From Escherichia phage SD2: 64,000 bases of DNA. The notes beneath the pieces were generated by a model that saw only the letters and a program-made list of their open reading frames with translations, searched no databases and was not told the origin of the DNA. The translations under genes were made by a program, and so were the position numbers. Positions 3,749 through 59,731 of this stretch are shown here, piece by piece. The stretch lies in the sequence record PQ821640; one strand, written 5' to 3'. Numbering within the stretch: position 1 is the stretch's first letter; every line of letters begins with the position of its first letter.

Positions 3749-4110
3749 TAGTATAATCCCTCGCTGAATAGTTCACTGTCGTGACCATTTCTTTCATAGT
3801 TAATTTGTTTGGCGTTATCTGCAATGATATAAGCATCTTTGCGACTCCACCAGTTATAATACTGATCAATAAACCATTGATTATCAGGTAAGCAAAACAG
3901 TTTATCAATCAACCCTGCATCTTTTAAAACATTAAGTTGTGCAGATAATACAGGATTTGCATGCCTAACACAAGGAATAATTAACTCTTCGCCATTGTTG
4001 AGGATATACTTATTCGCAGCGCATACTATAACACGTTGAGCATAGTGATCCTCACCAATCCAAGTAAGAGGTTGGTAACAAATATCATGTTGATTAGTAG
4101 CGCACATCAA
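3748..4110 (-). CDS. hypothetical protein (120 aa)
   Basis: ORF with start overlapping upstream stop. Confidence 0.45.
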   Translation of the reverse strand: MMCATNQHDICYQPLTWIGEDHYAQRVIVCAANKYILNNGEELIIPCVRHANPVLSAQLNVLKDAGLIDKLFCLPDNQWFIDQYYNWWSRKDAYIIADNAKQINYERNGHDSELFSEGLY

Positions 4111-4265
4111 TTTTCTCCGTACTCTTTTAATCTATCAGCGAAAAAACTGTAATCAGGAAGTAAAAGATCATTACTCGTATCGTTACAGTTTTCTTCATCT
4201 TTATAGATAAAACGCCCTTCATCCTCTTCTTGCTCTGACCAAACTGAGTAATGCATAATACCTAC

Positions 4266-4640
4266 TTAATAGTTAACACGTTTAATTTCAACACCATAGG
4301 ATGAAATAAAATTTTCCTTAGCTAACATATATTTAGCGGCAGCAGAAGGATTTGATGTATGAACATAGATAGTTTTAAGAGCATCCCATTCACCAGCGTA
4401 CAACATACATTCTACGTCTAAGAACGCATGATATCCTTCTTGATCTTCTCCAAGATCATTATCGAAGTGTATCTCTGAGATGTTATTGAAATTATCTTCA
4501 TCTGAAACAAAAGATAACCAATCCTCAAAAGATTTTAACCAAATGGCATCCTCATAACCATAATCTTTAGGATCTCTTAAATCGTCTAACCAAAGAATTT
4601 TAGCCACTATCAACCCCCTTCCTGTTTCTCTTCTTTCCAA
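4266..4640 (-). CDS. hypothetical acidic protein (124 aa)
   Basis: ORF in early block. Confidence 0.45.
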   Translation of the reverse strand: MERRETGRGLIVAKILWLDDLRDPKDYGYEDAIWLKSFEDWLSFVSDEDNFNNISEIHFDNDLGEDQEGYHAFLDVECMLYAGEWDALKTIYVHTSNPSAAAKYMLAKENFISSYGVEIKRVNY

Positions 4641-4801
4641 GTTTTACCATTATCTACCAACTTCTTAGAAACAGCAAATCTTTCTCCATTGATATAAAAC
4701 AAATAAAGAATAAAGGATTTTCCTATAGTTACAGTATCTACTACTTTTACACGCTTCACACCTTGCATGTATTTGGCTTTACCTGAATAAATAAGGAACA
4801 T
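4610..4801 (-). CDS. hypothetical protein (63 aa)
   Basis: Short ORF, packing consistent with operon. Confidence 0.3.
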   Translation of the reverse strand: MFLIYSGKAKYMQGVKRVKVVDTVTIGKSFILYLFYINGERFAVSKKLVDNGKTWKEEKQEGG

Positions 4802-5079
4802 TACTTATTCCTTTTGTTGTTGATCACATCTAAAGCTGTGTAAGGTTTGTTTGTACCGCTGTATTCAAGAATAATTGGTACATATTCATAGATCAACTCA
4901 AAAGTACCATACATAGAATCTGCAACTGAAATAAGCATTTCAGTGCCTTTGTCGTTCTTAATTAATGAAAATCTTGCCCCTGGTTTATTGAGCACTTCAT
5001 ATTTCTTACCTGCTGTCAGCAAACCTGAATACCATTCATTTTGCACAACAGACAAACACTTCAGATAAGTTTTTCTCAT
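4801..5079 (-). CDS. hypothetical protein (92 aa)
   Basis: ORF in early block. Confidence 0.4.
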   Translation of the reverse strand: MRKTYLKCLSVVQNEWYSGLLTAGKKYEVLNKPGARFSLIKNDKGTEMLISVADSMYGTFELIYEYVPIILEYSGTNKPYTALDVINNKRNK

Positions 5080-6642: not shown

Positions 6643-7536
6643 ATGAAAGTTAGTATTCTGCATGGTGTTGACTGTTATGTTACTGATGTAGACGTTAAAG
6701 TGTTTACATTCTCTGGTGGAGAACAACATGTTCAATTAGATACGAATCTATCAGGTTTCAATCATGCTACAGACAGAATCTTACTCACTTTAGAAGTAAG
6801 ATCTGCTAAAGACTTGATGACTTTGGTTATGACTAAGAATGCATTGGACAATATGCTATATCATAAACCGTATTGTGTTGATTTACTCATGTTGTATGTG
6901 CCGTATGCACGGCAAGACAGAGTGTGTGAGCCTGGGGAAGCATTCGGAGTTAAAGCATTTGCTTCTATAATTAATTCATTAAATTTCTCACGTGTTATCG
7001 TTGCTGATCCGCATAGTGATGTTACTCCAGCAGTGTTTGACAGACTCTGTGTAATACCTCAAGAAGAGATTGCTTACGAAACTTTAAAGTGGAAGTTACG
7101 TATGGAGAATTTTGCTCTTGTTAGCCCTGATGGTGGTGCTCTTAAGAAAATATTTAAATTATCTAAGAAAATGTCTTTAGATGTGTTCTGTGCAGAGAAG
7201 GTTAGAGATACCGCAACAGGTGCTATTGTTCGTACAGACATTTCTGTACAGGATTTCAATAAGCGTAACCTGATGATCGTAGATGATATCTGTGATGGTG
7301 GTAGAACTTTTATCGAATTGGCTAAAGTGCTACGTGCTCGTAACGCAGGTAAGATTGAGCTATATGTTACGCACGGTATCTTTTCTAAAGGTCTTAAAGA
7401 GTTAAGTGAGCACTTTGACTGCATTCATTCTCTTAATGTGTGGGAAGATAACATCCAAGAAGATTCTGGTGTTCTTGTTAAGAATCAGTCAGATTTGCAA
7501 CAACAAATTGTATCTCCATACGTGTGGAATTTTTAA
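6643..7536 (+). CDS. ribose-phosphate pyrophosphokinase-like protein (PRPP synthetase family; possibly ADP-ribose pyrophosphokinase)
   Basis: PRPP-binding loop MIVDDICDGGRT and DPHS motif; AGGAG site before ATG. Confidence 0.75.
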   Translation: MKVSILHGVDCYVTDVDVKVFTFSGGEQHVQLDTNLSGFNHATDRILLTLEVRSAKDLMTLVMTKNALDNMLYHKPYCVDLLMLYVPYARQDRVCEPGEAFGVKAFASIINSLNFSRVIVADPHSDVTPAVFDRLCVIPQEEIAYETLKWKLRMENFALVSPDGGALKKIFKLSKKMSLDVFCAEKVRDTATGAIVRTDISVQDFNKRNLMIVDDICDGGRTFIELAKVLRARNAGKIELYVTHGIFSKGLKELSEHFDCIHSLNVWEDNIQEDSGVLVKNQSDLQQQIVSPYVWNF

Positions 7537-7607: not shown

Positions 7608-9341
7608 ATGAATATTTTTGCACCTTTTGCTACTGATTGGTACAAACCTGGTCACAAGCAGATGTACAACCAAAATACAAAACTTATTTTCTCTAATTTA
7701 ACTCCTCGTAATGATAAAAACTTTGCACACTATGCAGATCGTGAAGCACGTGGTGTGATTGTTTTAGGTATTCGTCGAGCAGTCACTGATGCTCTTGTAA
7801 CTATGTGGGATAGCTTCTTTAAAATGTCTCGTAGTGCAGCAGTAAATAAATTTTATCGTATGTCTAAAAATGCGTTAGGTGCTTCTGCTCCTTCTGCTGA
7901 ATGTTGGGGAGAATTGCACGACTTAGGTTATCTTCCGCTGGAAGTTCGATCTCTGCCAGAGGGTGTTTTGTGTCCTATTGGTGTTCCTGTATTTACTGTG
8001 CATAATACTTTAGAAAAATTCTTTTGGTTAACTAACTATGTGGAAACACTGTTGTCAGATGAAACTTGGAAGACAATGACTAATGCCACAGCAGCTTTTC
8101 AGTATAAGCGTATCGCTATGGCATATGCGATGGCAACGTGTGATAATATTGATCACGTTAACTTCCAGTGTCATGATTTTAGCCTACGTGGTTTAAGTAA
8201 TATCGAAGATGGTTATAAGAGTGGTATTGCTCATTTAGCATCTTTCACAGGGACAGATAATATTCTGGCTATTGAAACTGTGCATGATTATTATGGTATT
8301 GATTATGATCAGTTTGTTGCAGGTTCTATTCCGGCAACAGAACATTCAGTAGCAACTACTAACATTGGAGCTATTGTTGAAGACCTGAAGAAACATTTCC
8401 CACATCTTAAAGATGATGTAGATGGTCTTCGTTATGTAGCAGAGAAAGAGTTTCTTCGTCGTTATATTGAAGAAATTGTTCCAGAAGGTTTTTGTTCATA
8501 TGTAGCAGATTCCTATGATTACTGGGCTGTCTTGACTCGAATTCTGGTAGAATTGAAAGATTCCATTATGTCACGAAATGGTCGTCTTGTTATTCGTCCA
8601 GATTCAGGAGATCCGGTTAAAGTTGTTGCAGGATACAATGTTGAATCTTTTGATAACTATGAAGACCTCTTAAATAATGGTATTGCGACAGCCACTGAAG
8701 TAGTTCATTTGGCTGATGTTAATAAGTATTACAATGTTCTTCAGGATTGCAGTGTTGCTGACTGTATTGATGAAACTTATGAGATTCCTTATTGTGAAGC
8801 AGTAGGTTCTATTCAAATCCTTTGGGAAGTGTTTGGTGGTACTATCAACCGAAAAGGCTACAAGGTTCTTGATCAGCATATCGGTATGATTTATGGTGAT
8901 TCCATTACTGTTGAACGAGAACACGAGATCTTACGCCGACTGAAGAAGAAAGGTTTTGCAGCTTCCAATATTGTATTTGGTGTTGGTAGTTATACTTATC
9001 AGTTCAATACACGAGATACTTTCGGTTTTGCTGTTAAAGCAACAGGTAGTATCATCGGTGAACACGAAATTTTGGTAAGTAAGGAGCCTAAAACTGATCC
9101 TGGTAAACGCTCTGCAAAAGGTTTTATTAAGGTTGTTAAGGATACCAATGGTAATCTTTCTCTTGTAGATAATCTTTCTTTTAAAGATATCCAGGATGAA
9201 GACAATGAGTTACAAGTTATCTTCAAGGATGGTAAGGTTATTACACCACAAGTAGAAGGCCGTGATGAAACATTCACTGATATCCGCAACCGTGTTGATG
9301 TAGAGGTTCTTCGTACTATGGGAACCATCCAGGTTGACTAA
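7608..9341 (+). CDS. nicotinamide phosphoribosyltransferase-like protein (NadV/NAMPT family)
   Basis: N-terminal DWYKPGHKQMY resembles the NAMPT start; 577 aa; immediately follows the Prs-like gene. Confidence 0.7.
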   Translation: MNIFAPFATDWYKPGHKQMYNQNTKLIFSNLTPRNDKNFAHYADREARGVIVLGIRRAVTDALVTMWDSFFKMSRSAAVNKFYRMSKNALGASAPSAECWGELHDLGYLPLEVRSLPEGVLCPIGVPVFTVHNTLEKFFWLTNYVETLLSDETWKTMTNATAAFQYKRIAMAYAMATCDNIDHVNFQCHDFSLRGLSNIEDGYKSGIAHLASFTGTDNILAIETVHDYYGIDYDQFVAGSIPATEHSVATTNIGAIVEDLKKHFPHLKDDVDGLRYVAEKEFLRRYIEEIVPEGFCSYVADSYDYWAVLTRILVELKDSIMSRNGRLVIRPDSGDPVKVVAGYNVESFDNYEDLLNNGIATATEVVHLADVNKYYNVLQDCSVADCIDETYEIPYCEAVGSIQILWEVFGGTINRKGYKVLDQHIGMIYGDSITVEREHEILRRLKKKGFAASNIVFGVGSYTYQFNTRDTFGFAVKATGSIIGEHEILVSKEPKTDPGKRSAKGFIKVVKDTNGNLSLVDNLSFKDIQDEDNELQVIFKDGKVITPQVEGRDETFTDIRNRVDVEVLRTMGTIQVD

Positions 9342-41257: not shown

Positions 41258-42744
41258 TGGCAGATTATGGTTTAACAGATGCTGGTTTTGTCATTCCAAC
41301 GTTTGATGATATTTTAAATAATTATATGACAGCATTGAAAAACACTTTCGGTGCAGATACAGCTACATCCGAAGATACTGTCTTTGGTCAACTGTTTCGT
41401 ATTATTGCATATACAGATTACACCCTTTGGGAAGGTATGCAAGGTGTTTACAATACCCAAACCTTAGATGGTGCAGAAGGTATTTACCTTGATGAAATTT
41501 TCTCTAAAAGGGGTTTTTATCGTAAAGCTGCTTCTGCTGGTAGTGGTTATGCTTATGTTAAATCTAACAATAAGGCAGCTTGGACTTATGAACTAAGCAC
41601 AGATGTTTATTTTAATGCCGATAACGATTTGACATATTATGTCAGTGCACCAACAATGTTGAATGCTAAGATTGGAGCATATACCATTTCTAAAGCAAAC
41701 GCAACAGCTTCTGGTGAAACTTCTATTACTTTCTACATTCAAAGTGCTATTGATGGTGGTCTTAACAGTAAAACACTAAGTCCTAGCAATACAAACTTTA
41801 TTGTAGATCTCACGAATTTCATTAAAGCTAACGTATCAACAACAGATCGTGCTTTAGTATGGAATGATGCGAGTAATGTTTATATGGGTTATAATCCAGA
41901 AGATAATGTTAACCCAATAGGTCTAGTAACACCAGTGAAATTTTATGCATCCATTGCAATTGGTACAAAATGGAGTGAAATTCCAGTTACGTGTTCAGAC
42001 GTTGGTTATAATCCAGTAGGTACAGAAAGTATTACAGGTATTTCTTCAACGTTTACAGGCTTTTTAGATACAGGTAACTTCTATCCTTTCTCTCCAGGTA
42101 CAGATGTTGAAACAGATGCAGAATTCCGTTCTCGTTTCAATGATAATATGGATGAAGCTAATGCTGCTACTCGTGCTGCTATTGTTAAAGCTCTATTACT
42201 GACAGATGGTGTGACAAAGGTTAAGATTTATGATAACCCTACACTACACGATCAAGAACATGCTCCAGCTATGACATTCCAAACTATTGTGTACGGTGGT
42301 ACAGCAGAAGAAGTTGCACAGGTTATTTATAATACTAAGCCTATCAACACCTTAACTTATGGTACGACAGCAATTACTATCATAACAGAAGATGGTGGTC
42401 AAGAAGTAATTCGTTTTTCTCCTGGTGATAATGCGGAATACTCACTTAAACTGGTATATCAAACTGGTAATGGTAGTGTGTTAAGTACAACAGAAAGAGA
42501 AAATATTGTTTCTGCTCTTGCAAACTTACAGGCTTATTTTGAATTAGGGTCAACAGTAACTAACGACCAGATAAAAGGTGTAATTTATTCTGCACTTGCG
42601 TTCGGACGCTTGACTTCTCTCCGTGTTTATGTTAAACTTAATACTGAGGATGACAGTAAATATAATGAGGGAGATATCACTCCAGCGTACAATGTTGTAC
42701 CATCCTTTGACCTTGATAATATTTCCTACGAGTACGGAGTCTAA
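41257..42744 (+). CDS. baseplate J-like protein
   Basis: N-terminal pattern (GFVIPTFDDIL...LDGAEGIYLDEIFSKRGFYRKAASAGSGYAYV) typical of baseplate J family; followed by I-, H-, G-like genes. Confidence 0.5.
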   Translation: MADYGLTDAGFVIPTFDDILNNYMTALKNTFGADTATSEDTVFGQLFRIIAYTDYTLWEGMQGVYNTQTLDGAEGIYLDEIFSKRGFYRKAASAGSGYAYVKSNNKAAWTYELSTDVYFNADNDLTYYVSAPTMLNAKIGAYTISKANATASGETSITFYIQSAIDGGLNSKTLSPSNTNFIVDLTNFIKANVSTTDRALVWNDASNVYMGYNPEDNVNPIGLVTPVKFYASIAIGTKWSEIPVTCSDVGYNPVGTESITGISSTFTGFLDTGNFYPFSPGTDVETDAEFRSRFNDNMDEANAATRAAIVKALLLTDGVTKVKIYDNPTLHDQEHAPAMTFQTIVYGGTAEEVAQVIYNTKPINTLTYGTTAITIITEDGGQEVIRFSPGDNAEYSLKLVYQTGNGSVLSTTERENIVSALANLQAYFELGSTVTNDQIKGVIYSALAFGRLTSLRVYVKLNTEDDSKYNEGDITPAYNVVPSFDLDNISYEYGV

Positions 42745-42746
42745 AA

Positions 42747-43376
42747 ATGGCAGTGAGTGTTGACCATGTGACAACGTGGGATAGTATCAATGAAGATGTT
42801 AAAGACCTACTGATTGAAGATTTTAAATCTTCTCCGAACATTGTCAAACTACTCTATATCATTTCTAGCGAAAAACAAAAGATAGATCAGGCAATGATCT
42901 ATCTTGCCAAACACCGCTTAATCTCTACTGCAACTGGTAAGTATTTAGATCTTATTGGTGAAGAGATGGGGATGGAGAGAAATGGTGCTACGGATGAAGA
43001 GTATCGTACAATATTAAAAATCAGGGCTTATCGTGTTGCGTCTTCTGGTACGCGAGATGATATCATTGATATGTTCGCTCGTTTTACAGGAACAGAAAAA
43101 GAAACGATCAATACATACGTTGGATTAAATAAAACATTCGACGTATTCTTTTATAATTTGTGTCTACAATCCGATCAGGCAGTAGCACAGTTACTTAACG
43201 TTTTCCCGATCCTAAGTAGTTATCGCTTAGGTGCGAAAGCGGGTGCAGCCTTTGGTTTCACTTCCTATTATGCCACAAAGCCACCTCATGGTATAGGTGG
43301 TTTAGGTTCTCTTTACACAGAGGCTGAAGGAGATGATACAGGGCGAATGACTATGCTGATAGCTCAAATAGAATAA
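42747..43376 (+). CDS. baseplate protein I-like
   Basis: 209-aa ORF directly after the J-like gene. Confidence 0.4.
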   Translation: MAVSVDHVTTWDSINEDVKDLLIEDFKSSPNIVKLLYIISSEKQKIDQAMIYLAKHRLISTATGKYLDLIGEEMGMERNGATDEEYRTILKIRAYRVASSGTRDDIIDMFARFTGTEKETINTYVGLNKTFDVFFYNLCLQSDQAVAQLLNVFPILSSYRLGAKAGAAFGFTSYYATKPPHGIGGLGSLYTEAEGDDTGRMTMLIAQIE

Positions 43377-55190: not shown

Positions 55191-55805
55191 TTAAATCTTA
55201 AATTCTTCGTTGTTAAACGAATCCAGTGTACGTACTTCTGGTTCTTTGGGGATGAAAACGTCTTTTACAAAGCGGAACATAGGGAAACGTTCTGCCATTT
55301 TACGGACGTGTGCTTCTTTACCTGTGTATCGGTGATTAATAGTGCAAATATTAGTTTTCAATGCAAATTCAAAATCTGGATGATATACATAATTTAGACC
55401 ATCCCAGTAACACAGGCAAATAGCTACGTCAAAATTCCATACGATTTCACTGCGTACACCTTCTTCCATGATCATAAAGTTAAACTTAAGATCTTTATAG
55501 TATGCTTCAAATACCCATTTCAGATGTGGTAGTTCGGCATAAGTATGTTCTGTTTGCTTAGTGAGTTGTTTAACATTACGTGCACCAACACCCAACATCA
55601 AAAACTTCTCTACTAGCACGAGTGTATTGTGGTTAGGCATACGCAAGTAAATGTCAATGTCTTGTGCAGGTTTCTCTAATCGCCAATCACGTACAGCACC
55701 GCCAGCTACAATTGCAAACGGATCTACCAGTTGGCACATACGTAATACTTCTAAAGCGCGTACTTTTTGATCTTCAATATTCATATTTTCTCCTATCGTG
55801 TCCAC
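55191..55805 (-). CDS. nucleotidyltransferase with CCA-adding-enzyme-like head motif
   Basis: GGAVRDWRLEKPAQDIDIY resembles the pol-beta-type GGAVRD...D.D head motif of tRNA nucleotidyltransferases; only 204 aa. Confidence 0.5.
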   Translation of the reverse strand: MDTIGENMNIEDQKVRALEVLRMCQLVDPFAIVAGGAVRDWRLEKPAQDIDIYLRMPNHNTLVLVEKFLMLGVGARNVKQLTKQTEHTYAELPHLKWVFEAYYKDLKFNFMIMEEGVRSEIVWNFDVAICLCYWDGLNYVYHPDFEFALKTNICTINHRYTGKEAHVRKMAERFPMFRFVKDVFIPKEPEVRTLDSFNNEEFKI

Positions 55806-56389
55806 TCTTTGTGTTGTTCTACATGCTCAAGCATTTCATTATACAGTGCTTTAAGATGTGGAACAACTCTTTCATCTTCAGTTTCAAAGAATTTTGTAAG
55901 CTGCTCTGCCTTAGCTTTCAACCAGCAAAGATGTGCTTCAATTTCAGTATTAAAACGTCCCAGCGTTATAACACGTCCATCGCGTTGAATATGGGCTTTA
56001 TACTTTTTACGATCTTTTTCGTAACTACAGCCTACCATAGTTCCATGAGATCTTTTACTTACTCTATAAGCTAAGAACTTGTTAAGATCTCCTGTTACTA
56101 AAAGACAGGTATCGGGAGAGTAAACTCTCCCTCCTATAATATCTTTATCAAGTTCTAAGTTTTCCCAGTTATCCCAAGTTTGCAACCAGGAGTAGAAATT
56201 GGAGAACAACTTCCATTCTTCACAAACCGTCACCCCATTATAACAAGGATCACGTTCTTGTTGGCAAGGGGAGTAACACCTCCCCAACATAGCCATCCAT
56301 TTCATATAATGCGGCGTTAGTTTCTTACTACCAGGTAGCGTACTCTCGCCTTCCAAATCATTAATACCTTCACCATATACGGTAAGCAT
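55793..56389 (-). CDS. homing endonuclease-like protein with AP2-type DNA-binding domain
   Basis: C-terminal KKYKAHIQRDGRVITLGRFNTEIEAHLCWLKA matches the AP2 pattern; wedged between polymerase and nucleotidyltransferase genes. Confidence 0.45.
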   Translation of the reverse strand: MLTVYGEGINDLEGESTLPGSKKLTPHYMKWMAMLGRCYSPCQQERDPCYNGVTVCEEWKLFSNFYSWLQTWDNWENLELDKDIIGGRVYSPDTCLLVTGDLNKFLAYRVSKRSHGTMVGCSYEKDRKKYKAHIQRDGRVITLGRFNTEIEAHLCWLKAKAEQLTKFFETEDERVVPHLKALYNEMLEHVEQHKEWTR

Positions 56390-56416: not shown

Positions 56417-59400
56417 TCAGTGACAAGACGCCCATGAATTACCAACATCGTAACCAGCAGTGAGAGGTACATTAAGATTGTAATACTCACCAGCTTTATT
56501 AACAGCGATAGATGCTAATTCTCCAGCACGACTGTAGGCTGTAAACCAACCACCTTTCGGAGATTCATGTACGTTAGCCCAAATCTTGCCAGTACGTTTC
56601 TCTTCCTCTTCTTTCCAGGCATTAACTTTATCCAAACATTCTTTATCAATTTTCTTTTGTTCTTCTGGATCATCAACTTGAGTCCAACCTAAAGATTCTT
56701 TAGAGAACCATTTAAAATGCACCAGATCACGAGTTACTTCAAGCTGTGCTTCATCGTGATATGCAATCATTTGTTGAACGAATGACTTATTTTTCCAGTC
56801 ATCAACAAAAAAGTCAACAGCTAATCCTTCTTCTTCGATAAGATCGTCGTAGATAACCATTGCTCTTTTTGCACAAATAACACCACCACTCTGGAACAGA
56901 GAGTTAAGTATTGCGTGTGCAGATCGTGTAGGTACTTTCCTACCATCAATACCCAGAATGTATTTCTTACCTGTTTTAACCCAGAAATCATGCAGACGTT
57001 CTTTAAGAAGTGCAAGAGGTTTTGCAGCTTCCCAGAAAGCATCGTATACAAGCTGTCCTGTATACATATCACTACCAATAGTTTTTGCTACTTTTGCAGC
57101 TTGAGCACCATAAGTAATACCATACTTAACAGATTTAGCAGGGCTTCGTTCAAACTTACGACCAATAGTGTCAGAAATACGTCGAGCCATCATTGTATGA
57201 ACATCATTAGGTTTTTCCAACAATAGAGCATTACAATATTCGTGTGGTTCCTGCTCGTACCGCCAACAATTCCCTGTAATCGTGATGCAGTCTTTCTGAC
57301 GCATAACCCATGTACCGAGTTCTGTTTGTGGACACCAAACATCTTCTACACCCCATTCTTCAATAGTCAGACTTTGAACAGGGATGTGAGAGCGGTTAGC
57401 CAACGTTGCCACTTTTACTTTCTGGTCTTTCGTATTGAAGGCTACAGAAATATTACCCCCATGAACCAGGTATGAGGCAGTTAAGGCTGCTTCAAAAAGT
57501 TCTCCTGGGTTCTGCGCCCAGCGCCAAACAGGTTTTTGTTTATGTTTGTGCCAGTAACCATCCGCAATCAAAAAACCTTCCAAGAAAGCCACACGCTCGG
57601 CATGAGACATATTAACTACACGTTCTACCCACGGAACATCCCATTTACCTTGTTGAACAGAAGTTAAACTATTTACTTGATCTTGTTCCATGTTAAATGG
57701 AGCATTACAAATAATGTTATCTCCTGTGCAAAGCTCGGCAGTTGTTCTGACTTTAGGCACATAAGTATTCCCTGTACTACGAGTATTAACATACCAACGG
57801 TGATCTGCTGTTGCACGATAAGTATGGGATTTTCCTTTAATCTCAAACGTCTTACTATTTTTATAGAAGACCTTACCTTTTACTTTAGTCCATTCTTTAA
57901 GTCCTGTTTCTGGGTTATATCCTAAGATTTCATCCCCTTCTTGTAGATCGTGATAACCAACCCAACCTTTACGGGTTAGTGCTTGTGCATCCATAGGTAC
58001 ACAGTAGTGTGATTCTATTTTTGCCTCAAGAGAATCAAAGTCATAACCAATTTGGAAGTATTTTGGAACTTCTACACCAAATAAGTTACGCATTTCATAT
58101 CCGTACAGAGATGTTACACGTGGGATATTTGCTACTAACCTATGTTTCATACGAGACGTAGCTGCATCGCACGTTGCAGCAGGGGTTGGTATACGACCAT
58201 CAGCCCTTACTGCCGCCAGATAACCTTTATCGTAATCCTCTTCATCCTCTTCCCAATCAGCGCCACCCCCTAGAATAGAGTTCCTACGATGTTTATACGT
58301 AAGATACTGCACAATCTGCGTAGCATAAGGAAACTTTTCACCTAGTGCTTCCAAGTTAGGACAAATATCCTTCTCTTGCCCTTTTGTAAAGGAAGGGTTA
58401 GTAAGCACTTTAACACCACGACCTTTAGCTTTAGCAATACGATCTCTTAGTTTCCATTCCAAAGTTTCTGGTGTGCACTCCAGATGATCACATCTATCCT
58501 GGCAGAAGTTAGATGCTAATGTTTGATCAACATAGTCACGAATAGCTTTCTCCATTTGTGCTTCATCTTTCTTAATCTTAGTGCCAGATTTAAGAGTGAT
58601 ATCTTTATCTTTATATTCAGATGGACTCCAACCTAAACCAACTAACCAATTTTTAATATGTGTAGTGTCGTCTAAAGTAGCAGGTACTGTAGGATCACAA
58701 ATAGGTTCTTCTGCTGGAATAGGTAGTTTAAACTCTTTACCTAATGCAAATAACCACCAACCATCTTCTTTTTGTACAAGTTCACCAGAATGTTTCTCTG
58801 CAAACTTTATCATGTTACTTGAAGGTTCACCATTCTTTTTAAACTGTAGTTTAGGTGGAATGAATGATTTCAAATAACCTTTAGTAGCAGGTTTAGGAGG
58901 TAGTACAGGTTCTGCCTCTAAACGACATGCTTCCATTCGAGCATCCAGATCACGAATATTATCTTCTGCTTGTTTCATATTGAAAGCAAAGCCACGGTGC
59001 TCTTGACGTGTAATAATATCAGCTACACGTTGTTCTAAGTTAAATGGTTCAGACCACTTATTATAATCACCCCACTCTTCCATCAAATAACGGAACACTG
59101 CGGTGTTAGCTTTGTTATCGTAAATACAGTAATACAACATATCTGCTGCAAATGTTCTAAATCTTTCAGTTTCAGGGATGTTTTTTCTAAAATCAATTTT
59201 AACATCCCCTCCAGCTTTCTTAGATAACTCTGCCAGACTATGACCACCGAAGCGATCAGGGTTTAGTGTCTTACTTAAGATCATAGTATCACAAATTTCA
59301 ATGTTACTATTACCCCAAGTATTGTACTTAATACTGTAGTTGAGTTTAAAAAATAATTTAATTGCCAGTAAGTCGAAGTTAATGATGTTGTGTCCGACTA

Positions 59401-59731
59401 CTTTGGTAATTTTATAGTTTGAATTACCTTTAAATTTACCTGTTCCATTTACAAAATCAGGAAAATCTTTAAGAGGGAAATGGGTATATTCTAAATGCTC
59501 ATATTCCTCCAGTCGGTATTCATACTTTCCGTCAGTCTCAATATACGGACGACCATCGAAAAGATATTTATCACCATCATGGAAAGCAATAATCTCTCCA
59601 GTATCATGACTTTCGCACACAATACAGTGCATTGCAAAACTATCTTTTAAACGATATGGACTTGCCAAGTAATCTACACTTTCGTCATTAAGCAAGTTGT
59701 TACTTTCAATGTCGAAAGTAAAAGCTCCCAT
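56417..59731 (-). CDS. DNA polymerase, family A, interrupted by an intein
   Basis: Exo I FDIES; motif A DFDSLEAKI; motif B RSPAKSVKYGITYGA; motif C YHDE; 1104 aa including insertion. Confidence 0.8.
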   Translation of the reverse strand: MGAFTFDIESNNLLNDESVDYLASPYRLKDSFAMHCIVCESHDTGEIIAFHDGDKYLFDGRPYIETDGKYEYRLEEYEHLEYTHFPLKDFPDFVNGTGKFKGNSNYKITKVVGHNIINFDLLAIKLFFKLNYSIKYNTWGNSNIEICDTMILSKTLNPDRFGGHSLAELSKKAGGDVKIDFRKNIPETERFRTFAADMLYYCIYDNKANTAVFRYLMEEWGDYNKWSEPFNLEQRVADIITRQEHRGFAFNMKQAEDNIRDLDARMEACRLEAEPVLPPKPATKGYLKSFIPPKLQFKKNGEPSSNMIKFAEKHSGELVQKEDGWWLFALGKEFKLPIPAEEPICDPTVPATLDDTTHIKNWLVGLGWSPSEYKDKDITLKSGTKIKKDEAQMEKAIRDYVDQTLASNFCQDRCDHLECTPETLEWKLRDRIAKAKGRGVKVLTNPSFTKGQEKDICPNLEALGEKFPYATQIVQYLTYKHRRNSILGGGADWEEDEEDYDKGYLAAVRADGRIPTPAATCDAATSRMKHRLVANIPRVTSLYGYEMRNLFGVEVPKYFQIGYDFDSLEAKIESHYCVPMDAQALTRKGWVGYHDLQEGDEILGYNPETGLKEWTKVKGKVFYKNSKTFEIKGKSHTYRATADHRWYVNTRSTGNTYVPKVRTTAELCTGDNIICNAPFNMEQDQVNSLTSVQQGKWDVPWVERVVNMSHAERVAFLEGFLIADGYWHKHKQKPVWRWAQNPGELFEAALTASYLVHGGNISVAFNTKDQKVKVATLANRSHIPVQSLTIEEWGVEDVWCPQTELGTWVMRQKDCITITGNCWRYEQEPHEYCNALLLEKPNDVHTMMARRISDTIGRKFERSPAKSVKYGITYGAQAAKVAKTIGSDMYTGQLVYDAFWEAAKPLALLKERLHDFWVKTGKKYILGIDGRKVPTRSAHAILNSLFQSGGVICAKRAMVIYDDLIEEEGLAVDFFVDDWKNKSFVQQMIAYHDEAQLEVTRDLVHFKWFSKESLGWTQVDDPEEQKKIDKECLDKVNAWKEEEEKRTGKIWANVHESPKGGWFTAYSRAGELASIAVNKAGEYYNLNVPLTAGYDVGNSWASCH
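57269..58003 (-). mobile_element. intein (245 aa) in DNA polymerase between motifs A and B, LAGLIDADG-like remnant
   Basis: Starts with Cys after ESHY (CVPMDAQALTRKGW), TADH block B-like, internal FLEGFLIADGYW, ends ITITGN followed by Cys. Confidence 0.55.

Follow-up and report, generated by a model that had tools for sequence, protein, structure and literature searches.

The DNA polymerase gene of Escherichia phage SD2 (record PQ821640), of which we analyzed a stretch of 64,000 nucleotides (here called the window), is interrupted in frame by a segment of 245 residues. We are confident that the best explanation for this segment is a genuine intein, very probably competent for splicing, which sits in a T7-like polymerase, is polymorphic among related phages, and has moved between phage genera. 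The window belongs to a phi92-like Escherichia coli myophage of the genus Justusliebigvirus, subfamily Stephanstirmvirinae, and its polymerase region shows a nucleotide identity of 99.0 to 99.5% to phi92, PD114, PD06, and PaulScherrer.

The precursor is recognized as a family A polymerase by Pfam (DNA_pol_A, E = 7.8e-11, exceeding the gathering score) and by the DNA polymerase families of PHROG, and its motifs A (D-x-x-x-L-E) and B (R-x-x-x-K-x-x-x-Y-G) follow each other in the correct order, the palm/fingers region being split by the insertion between them. A preliminary description, made from the letters of the sequence, had placed an intein at positions 57269 to 58003 between these two motifs; the coordinates proved to be exact, and the strand, which had been left unstated, is the minus strand. 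Translation of the segment likewise bore out the reported length, the initial Cys, the internal TADH (intein residues 65 to 68), and the final TGN followed by a further Cys: the 245 codons read CVPMDAQALTRKGW...KDCITITGN. These features far exceed what chance would produce. The segment is preceded by motif A, DFDSLEAKIESHY, and followed by CWRYEQ..., while motif B, RSPAKSVKYGITYGA, starts 40 residues past the end of the intein. Over both motifs, T7 gp5 can be aligned with the intein-free allele of the polymerase (E = 7.6e-21), which puts DFDSLEAKIESHY/CWRY (here and below, a slash marks a junction) opposite DASGLELRCLAHF/MARF of T7. It follows that the insertion point lies in the catalytic core, 12 residues past the catalytic Asp of motif A.

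Empty site, fold, and family of the intein

The alignment to an intein-free polymerase, which the preliminary description had proposed as a check, gave a clear outcome. In phage PHB05, the exteins of the polymerase are 100% identical to those of the window at the protein level, exactly 245 residues are missing, and the protein reads ...IESHY-CWRYEQ... across the empty insertion site TCTCTTGAGGCAAAAATAGAATCACACTAC/TGTTGGCGGTACGAGCAGGAACCACACGAA. At the nucleotide level, the exteins of the two phages are 99.1 to 99.2% identical, and all 21 of the 21 differences are synonymous. Furthermore, many records at 99% identity match the gene in two pieces, with a query coverage of about 78%. The site is empty in phage VEcB as well.

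The structure predicted with AlphaFold2 from an alignment of 35 family members (mean predicted local distance difference test score [pLDDT], 95.1) consists of a HINT fold and one LAGLIDADG half-domain. The best PDB matches of this model found by Foldseek are the inteins TliVMA, PI-SceI, PhoVMA, and PI-PfuI (E = 1.5e-7 to 6e-6), with mini-inteins coming next, and the 43 PDB matches at E ≤ 1e-3 all have the HINT fold, most of them being inteins, together with bacterial intein-like (BIL) and hedgehog autoprocessing domains. In addition, the family profile detected solved inteins, namely, the Spl DnaX mini-intein (E = 4.3e-7) and the class 3 AceL NrdHF intein (E = 1.3e-4).

An exhaustive phmmer search of 1.84 billion representative sequences returned 2,255 homologues of the intein, and the homologous segment could be delimited in 147 of the best 150 of these matches. 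The delimited segments start with Cys without exception (147/147), end with TGN in all but two cases (145/147), and are followed by Ser (64 cases), Thr (43 cases), or Cys (40 cases). Their insertion sites varied and included polymerase motif B, a TGR/SPN polymerase motif, and unrelated proteins (...DVYP/SAYANGW...); the site of the window intein recurs in homologues P0011, P0018, and P0022. Since the domain is bounded by splice-junction residues whatever the host site, it has to be regarded as an intein. A BIL domain was also considered and rejected, as the +1 nucleophile is always there and the insertion falls within the catalytic core. Diverged members of the family number in the hundreds and occur in phage polymerases and in other proteins. 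As a separate observation, about 21 of the 147 delimited members, P0002 to P0005 among them, interrupt a small basic protein at the conserved DVYP/SAYANGW site, and P0005 carries the precomputed family assignment PF19846.

A lineage-specific structural or regulatory insertion that is retained in the mature polymerase would also be found in frame, which is the one point in its favor. We give this explanation practically no chance: a structural domain is ruled out by the PHB05 allele, which lacks the segment and yet has identical exteins; the same domain turns up elsewhere, in proteins and at positions unrelated to this one, always as Cys...TGN followed by Ser, Thr, or Cys; the model, moreover, shows the HINT fold.

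Splicing residues and the class 3 triplet

The catalytic set of the intein comprises Cys1, Thr65 and His68 in block B, Asn245, and the Cys in position +1, with Gly244 taking the penultimate place that is usually held by His. In an alignment of 116 single-motif family members (cluster representatives at 50% identity), we found C1, H68, C224, T243, and N245 in 116/116 sequences and T65, W70, and G244 in 115/116. The isolates phi92 and PaulScherrer are propagated despite carrying the intein in their polymerase, and from the essential position of the insertion in this enzyme and the viability of the phages that bear it, we infer that the intein splices. The HINT domain, made up of intein residues 1 to 102 and 212 to 245, would excise the 245-residue intein from the 1,104-residue precursor and join ...IESHY to CWRYEQ..., yielding a polymerase of 859 residues identical to the one that intein-free sister phages encode directly.

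Besides these residues, the intein carries the complete Trp70-Cys224-Thr243 triplet, in the positions B:12, F:4, and G:5 that characterize class 3 inteins, and each of the three residues is kept in at least 115/116 family members. In particular, Trp70 stands two residues past the block B His, Cys224 stands 21 residues before Asn245, and Thr243 stands two residues before it. The spacing of H68/W70/C224/N245 is the same as that of H65/W67/C124/N145 in the class 3 Mle and Mch DnaB inteins, and the WCT triplet is likewise present in the class 3 inteins of Bethlehem DnaB, of Msm, Mle, and Mch DnaB-1, and of the mycobacteriophage TerL P-loop. The window intein also resembles class 3 inteins in its N-terminal block pattern (CVPxDTxxLTxxGW) and in that the family occurs mainly in phages, and the solved class 3 structures 6zgq, 6rix, and 6bs8 are among the better mini-intein fold matches of our model.

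However, class 3 was defined by the lack of the N-terminal nucleophile, splicing being started by the block F Cys (PMC2807308, PMC3196547). Different from class 3 inteins, the family of the window intein has Cys1 in every aligned member, and the window intein itself is followed by Cys in position +1 rather than by Ser or Thr and has Gly instead of His in the penultimate position. In the 2009 state of InBase, only 3 of the 37 inteins with a WCT triplet had Ser or Cys as their first residue. Owing to the invariant Cys1, we do not file the window intein under class 3 in its original definition. Two routes of splicing are conceivable, the class 1 route, with Cys1 as the starting point, and the class 3 route, which would start from Cys224 and pass through a branched thioester at block F. 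In the first case, the element would be a class 1 intein endowed with the triad; the sequence alone does not permit a choice. Tori and Perler reportedly proposed a standard phage intein as the progenitor of class 3. A structural study argued that class 3 could not have arisen stepwise from class 1 (PMC7664689).

Distribution and mobility

Among the 126 phage-collection records that match the gene, 33 contain the intein: 11 from Justusliebigvirus (95 to 100% identity) and 22 from Phapecoctavirus-like phages (about 92%). Between the two genera, the intein reaches a nucleotide identity of 91.7%, with a peak of 98%, whereas the flanking exteins stand at 72.5% and 79.7%. This difference indicates that the intein has been transferred horizontally. 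Within the genus, the gene of the window and that of PaulScherrer differ at 40 positions, none of which falls in the 935 nucleotides (gene nucleotides 1576 to 2510) that comprise the intein and its near flanks, where an even spread would predict about 11.

A related intein occupies a second site in the polymerase. In the Phapecoctavirus phage nieznany (NC_052659; positions 4001 to 4972 of the locus analyzed), an intein of 324 residues, 32% identical to the window intein and provided with two LAGLIDADG motifs, GRFLGWLLSDGYY and AFLEAFWMADGH, lies inside polymerase motif B (KSVKYG/C...LTGN/C-TYGAQ), 50 codons downstream of the site used in the window. This second site (site b) is occupied in 12 records, including nieznany, ukendt, nepoznato, AV126, and phiWec187, while the first (site a) is occupied in the 33 records mentioned above, and none of these carriers has both inteins in one polymerase. 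The polymerases of ESCO5, which bears the site a intein, and nieznany are 94 to 100% identical save around the two sites. We also noticed that the records MG065639, MG065645, MG065656, and MG065689 are labeled as Campylobacter phages (host, Campylobacter jejuni), even though they are 98.6 to 99.8% identical to E. coli phages in the terminase gene and the site b intein; the host label looks doubtful.

The intein would spread by homing into the empty site during coinfection. A dimer of its own half-domain may supply the double-strand break, or else the spread may be due to ordinary recombination.

The LAGLIDADG half-domain

In the model, intein residues 103 to 211 make up one helix-hairpin-helix-hairpin (alpha-beta-beta-alpha-beta-beta) unit, whose LAGLIDADG helix spans residues 134 to 148. 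The core fold of LAGLIDADG proteins is present, and the helix retains its acidic, metal-binding residue at the C-terminal end, but there is one motif only (LEGFLIADG, residues 141 to 149) and one half-domain, not the two of the PI-SceI type. The values entered in the anatomical comparison of the half-domain are given in Table 1.

Table 1. Entries of the anatomical comparison for the half-domain
Protein	Value
TliVMA intein endonuclease domain	8.0
WhiA	7.8
I-Tsp061I	7.5
PI-SceI	6.3
I-DmoI	6.2
I-CeuI	6.0
PI-PkoII	5.9

Overall, the structures that match the window intein best are those of PI-SceI, TliVMA, PI-PfuI, and PI-PkoII, inteins whose HINT domain is interrupted at the same point by a LAGLIDADG domain. 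These inteins differ from that of the window in having two half-domains, often an additional DNA recognition region, and a length of 360 to 540 residues. The homodimeric single-motif enzymes I-CreI, I-CeuI, and I-MsoI, on the other hand, are free-standing or intron encoded, contact DNA with longer hairpins, and cleave sites that are nearly palindromic, whereas the half-domain of the window is embedded in an intein, the empty site of which does not appear palindromic. The roughly 90 additional residues of the nieznany intein are located precisely at the point at which length is missing from the window intein, which indicates that the latter has kept the C-terminal half of the nuclease. Of the 147 delimited homologues, 115 measure 235 to 265 residues and 29 measure 290 to 380 residues.

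The preliminary description had spoken of a LAGLIDADG-like remnant. The domain is indeed partial, being one half of the nuclease, but the suggestion of decay is not upheld. In the 116-sequence alignment, the residue in the catalytic position is acidic in 115 members (Asp in 103, Glu in 12); of two further residues, Gly149 is found in 115 members and Gln164 in every one. Moreover, the ratio of nonsynonymous to synonymous substitution rates (dN/dS), calculated between the window and the Phapecoctavirus copy in ESCO5, is 0.037 for the half-domain, near the 0.023 of the N-terminal HINT lobe. The evidence thus points away from decay, and the half-domain is under strong purifying selection. In a neighbor-joining tree, crude in that it was built on raw identity distances and carries no support values, the window intein belongs to a clade of 75 inteins, all with a single motif, whose insertion sites fall into at least five classes. 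This suggests that new sites were invaded repeatedly after the reduction in size; the site classes are themselves crude, being based on regular expressions, and the figure of about 21 site changes should be taken as an estimate at the upper end. The same family includes mini-inteins (P0008 and P0009); the fold therefore does not depend on the half-domain.

Some observations weigh against a splicing and mobile intein. Curated libraries scarcely detect the intein when it is searched alone (Pfam LAGLIDADG_3, E = 0.084; nothing in NCBIfam or PHROG); a single-sequence phmmer search against the PDB gave only E values of 0.3 or higher, and a word-indexed protein search for homologues gave only nine matches. 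Since the curated libraries cover this family poorly, the family alignment described above was built instead. The penultimate His is missing, its replacement by Gly being a trait of the whole family. The intein of mycobacteriophage Bethlehem gp51 (RDF) has a Gly-Asn C terminus as well, though in a different host protein; mycobacteriophage inteins without the penultimate His are known, phage inteins with a Gly-Asn end do splice, and splicing can even suffer when the His is restored (PMC5050341). Of a LAGLIDADG nuclease, the intein possesses only one half. Notable symmetry is lacking at the empty site, where the best dyad within 12 nucleotides on either side of the insertion point scores 7/11; this score, reached at about 1% of gene positions, with 50 positions tested, does not exceed the background of the gene, though the actual recognition site may differ from the stretch scored. 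Finally, the window and PHB05 differ by 21 synonymous changes that are scattered over the gene rather than clustered at the site, and that pair shows no clear coconversion tract.

Several of these points would also suit an intein that splices while its endonuclease is dead, in which case the half-domain would be a leftover kept as part of the fold, and the present pattern would derive from recombination and vertical descent. The single motif, compared with the two of the 324-residue relative in nieznany, the target site without dyad symmetry, and the single-nucleotide polymorphisms that do not cluster around the site are all consistent with this explanation, as is the literature searched, in which, judging by titles and the beginnings of abstracts, no single-motif intein endonuclease has been described. 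The intein-encoded LAGLIDADG enzymes known to us all have two motifs, and we know of no intein described as homing by means of a dimer of single-motif LAGLIDADG domains. Nevertheless, we rate a dead endonuclease slightly below an even chance. Against it stand the low dN/dS of the half-domain, the catalytic position that stays acidic through exchanges of Asp and Glu, the invariant Gln164, and the repeated invasion implied by the single-motif clade. The mini-inteins of the family, which show that the fold does not need the domain, argue in the same direction, as does the comparison with the terminase intein described below, which lacks an endonuclease and appears to be fixed, whereas the polymerase intein is polymorphic.

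The neighboring open reading frame and the terminase intein

According to the preliminary description, an AP2-type homing endonuclease gene lies directly upstream of the polymerase gene and makes the locus a hotspot of mobile elements. The open reading frame (ORF) concerned, at positions 55793 to 56389 on the minus strand (198 residues), is in fact directly downstream (3') of the polymerase gene, and it has no match to the HNH or AP2 families of Pfam even at E ≤ 10 and no PDB sequence match. It matches PHROG families labeled HNH endonuclease (phrog_953, E = 8.5e-74, over profile positions 198 to 399 of 420 only), and its homologue in PHB05 bears the RefSeq name "HNH endonuclease." By eye, an AP2-like stretch can be made out (YKAHIQRDGRVITLGRFNTEIEAHLCW), and the stretch expected to be HNH-like (LELDKD...) has a Lys where the catalytic His is usual. 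The ORF may be an inactive or atypical relative of HNH endonucleases.

It is conceivable that this ORF mobilizes the intein in trans by cutting intein-free alleles, a role for which its PHROG matches, the RefSeq name of its homologue, and the AP2-like stretch might speak. We regard such a role as very unlikely. Intein-free PHB05 possesses the homologue, and so does nieznany, the carrier of the other intein, but it is missing from ESCO5, where the intein in question is found; since the presence of the ORF does not track that of the intein, we reject a trans-acting part in homing. The missing Pfam and PDB matches and the partial PHROG alignment also speak against it, and the authors of the BASEL collection list no homing endonucleases in PaulScherrer. 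With the ORF not tied to the intein and no homing endonuclease counted there, the idea of a hotspot is left to rest on the inteins alone.

The terminase intein mentioned in the preliminary description exists and does end in TGN. It is a mini-intein by which the large terminase is divided within its Walker A motif, as GGAAG/CVSAETEY...HIFVTGN/SGKS. With the polymerase intein it shares Cys1, a Cys placed 21 residues ahead of the final Asn (here Cys137), and the Thr-Gly-Asn end, while Phe replaces the Trp of the triplet. The relationship suggested for the two inteins stands in a broad sense, in that the hidden Markov model (HMM) of the polymerase intein family scores the terminase intein at 41.3 bits over both terminal blocks, whereas two unrelated inteins used as controls score 13.5 and 0.2 bits. 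It does not stand as a close relationship, as BLASTP aligned the two inteins over block A only, with 12 of 31 residues. The comparison of the sequences thus supports a common broad phage clade, within which the two are only distantly related.

The terminase mini-intein, which has no endonuclease, is present in all full-length Justusliebigvirus matches, PHB05 included. Being found in every full-length relative, it appears to be fixed, different from the polymorphic intein of the polymerase. Apart from this, in PQ567651 (phage cardinal), MG065639, MG065645, and MG065656, the terminase matches in two pieces over 3,054 bp, compared with 2,085 bp; the additional 970 bp or so may represent an intron or else another intein.

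Coordinates of the features

Table 2 collects the positions of the polymerase precursor, its parts, and the terminase intein. Elsewhere in the window, a ribose-phosphate pyrophosphokinase gene (6643 to 7536, plus strand) adjoins a nicotinamide phosphoribosyltransferase gene (7608 to 9341, plus strand), with PHROG E values of 3.8e-91 and 1.5e-188, respectively; together, they form a phage-encoded NAD+ salvage pair.

Table 2. Positions of the intein-related features in the window
Feature	Coordinates	Strand	Evidence
Intein-containing family A (T7-like) DNA polymerase precursor gene, 1,104 residues	56417..59731	-	ORF listing, Pfam, PHROG, T7 gp5 alignment
N-extein, precursor residues 1-576, with motif A (58004-58042) at its end	58004..59731	-	
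Intein, 245 residues, precursor residues 577-821, Cys1...Thr-Gly-Asn245	57269..58003	-	Exact absence in PHB05, MZ501100 annotation, AlphaFold2 model, Foldseek
HINT N-terminal lobe, intein residues 1-102; block A Cys1, block B T65-A-D-H68-R-W70 (57794-57811)	57698..58003	-	Beta-strand-rich model, 116-sequence alignment
Single LAGLIDADG half-domain, intein residues 103-211; LEGFLIADG (57557-57583), Asp148 in the catalytic position, invariant Gln164	57371..57697	-	
HINT C-terminal lobe, intein residues 212-245; block F Cys224 (57332-57334), block G Thr243-Gly244-Asn245	57269..57370	-	116-sequence alignment
C-extein, precursor residues 822-1104 and stop; +1 nucleophile Cys822 (57266-57268), motif B (57104-57148)	56417..57268	-	
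Mini-intein, 158 residues, in the large terminase (gene 15042-17126), Walker A motif	15168..15641	+	Family HMM

Earlier records and significance

It is common for phage replication proteins to contain inteins, and the polymerase intein itself is already known, so that the basic finding is an ordinary one. The intein of PaulScherrer (Bas60, MZ501100) is the same element, its 735 nucleotides being 100% identical and its gene and site being the same, and the record contains the features "intein-containing DNA polymerase precursor" and "intein," the latter as a mat_peptide at 42564..43298. This mat_peptide is off by one codon, reading V...TGNC instead of the canonical C...TGN, because Cys flanks both junctions and makes the alignment ambiguous. 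In the BASEL study, inteins were found by comparative genomics, and its Table S5 counts two inteins, one intron, and no homing endonucleases for PaulScherrer (PMC8594841). The 32 other intein-matching records listed have no intein feature under the match, and the RefSeq record of phi92 says "DNA polymerase I." A paper of 2024 stated that no inteins had been reported in coliphages (PMC11162368). As far as the literature searched shows, no analysis of the fold, splicing class, or endonuclease of the PaulScherrer intein has been published, and the conserved single-motif half of the nuclease, the combination of Cys1 with the triplet, and the two alternative sites appear not to have been discussed.

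In practical terms, the finding is of use because the 32 other records listed, including the RefSeq record of phi92, label the unspliced precursor of 1,104 residues as the polymerase. To intein specialists, the family is of potential interest for its pairing of Cys1 and the class 3 triad, which is relevant to the evolution of class 3 splicing, and for its strongly conserved half of a LAGLIDADG nuclease. We put forward tentatively, and as an idea more likely to fail than to hold, that inteins of about 250 residues may form a large class, which would combine homing by a single-motif nuclease, acting as a dimer of excised inteins, with a Cys1 accompanied by the class 3 triad. If this were true, the members of the family would be living candidates for the standard phage-intein progenitor of class 3, in which either splicing route might be possible. 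The phi92-like and Phapecoctavirus phages offer a tractable system in this respect, since they comprise culturable E. coli phages with an empty site, with the intein at site a, and with the intein at site b, and homing, as well as the interference between neighboring inteins, would be directly measurable in them.

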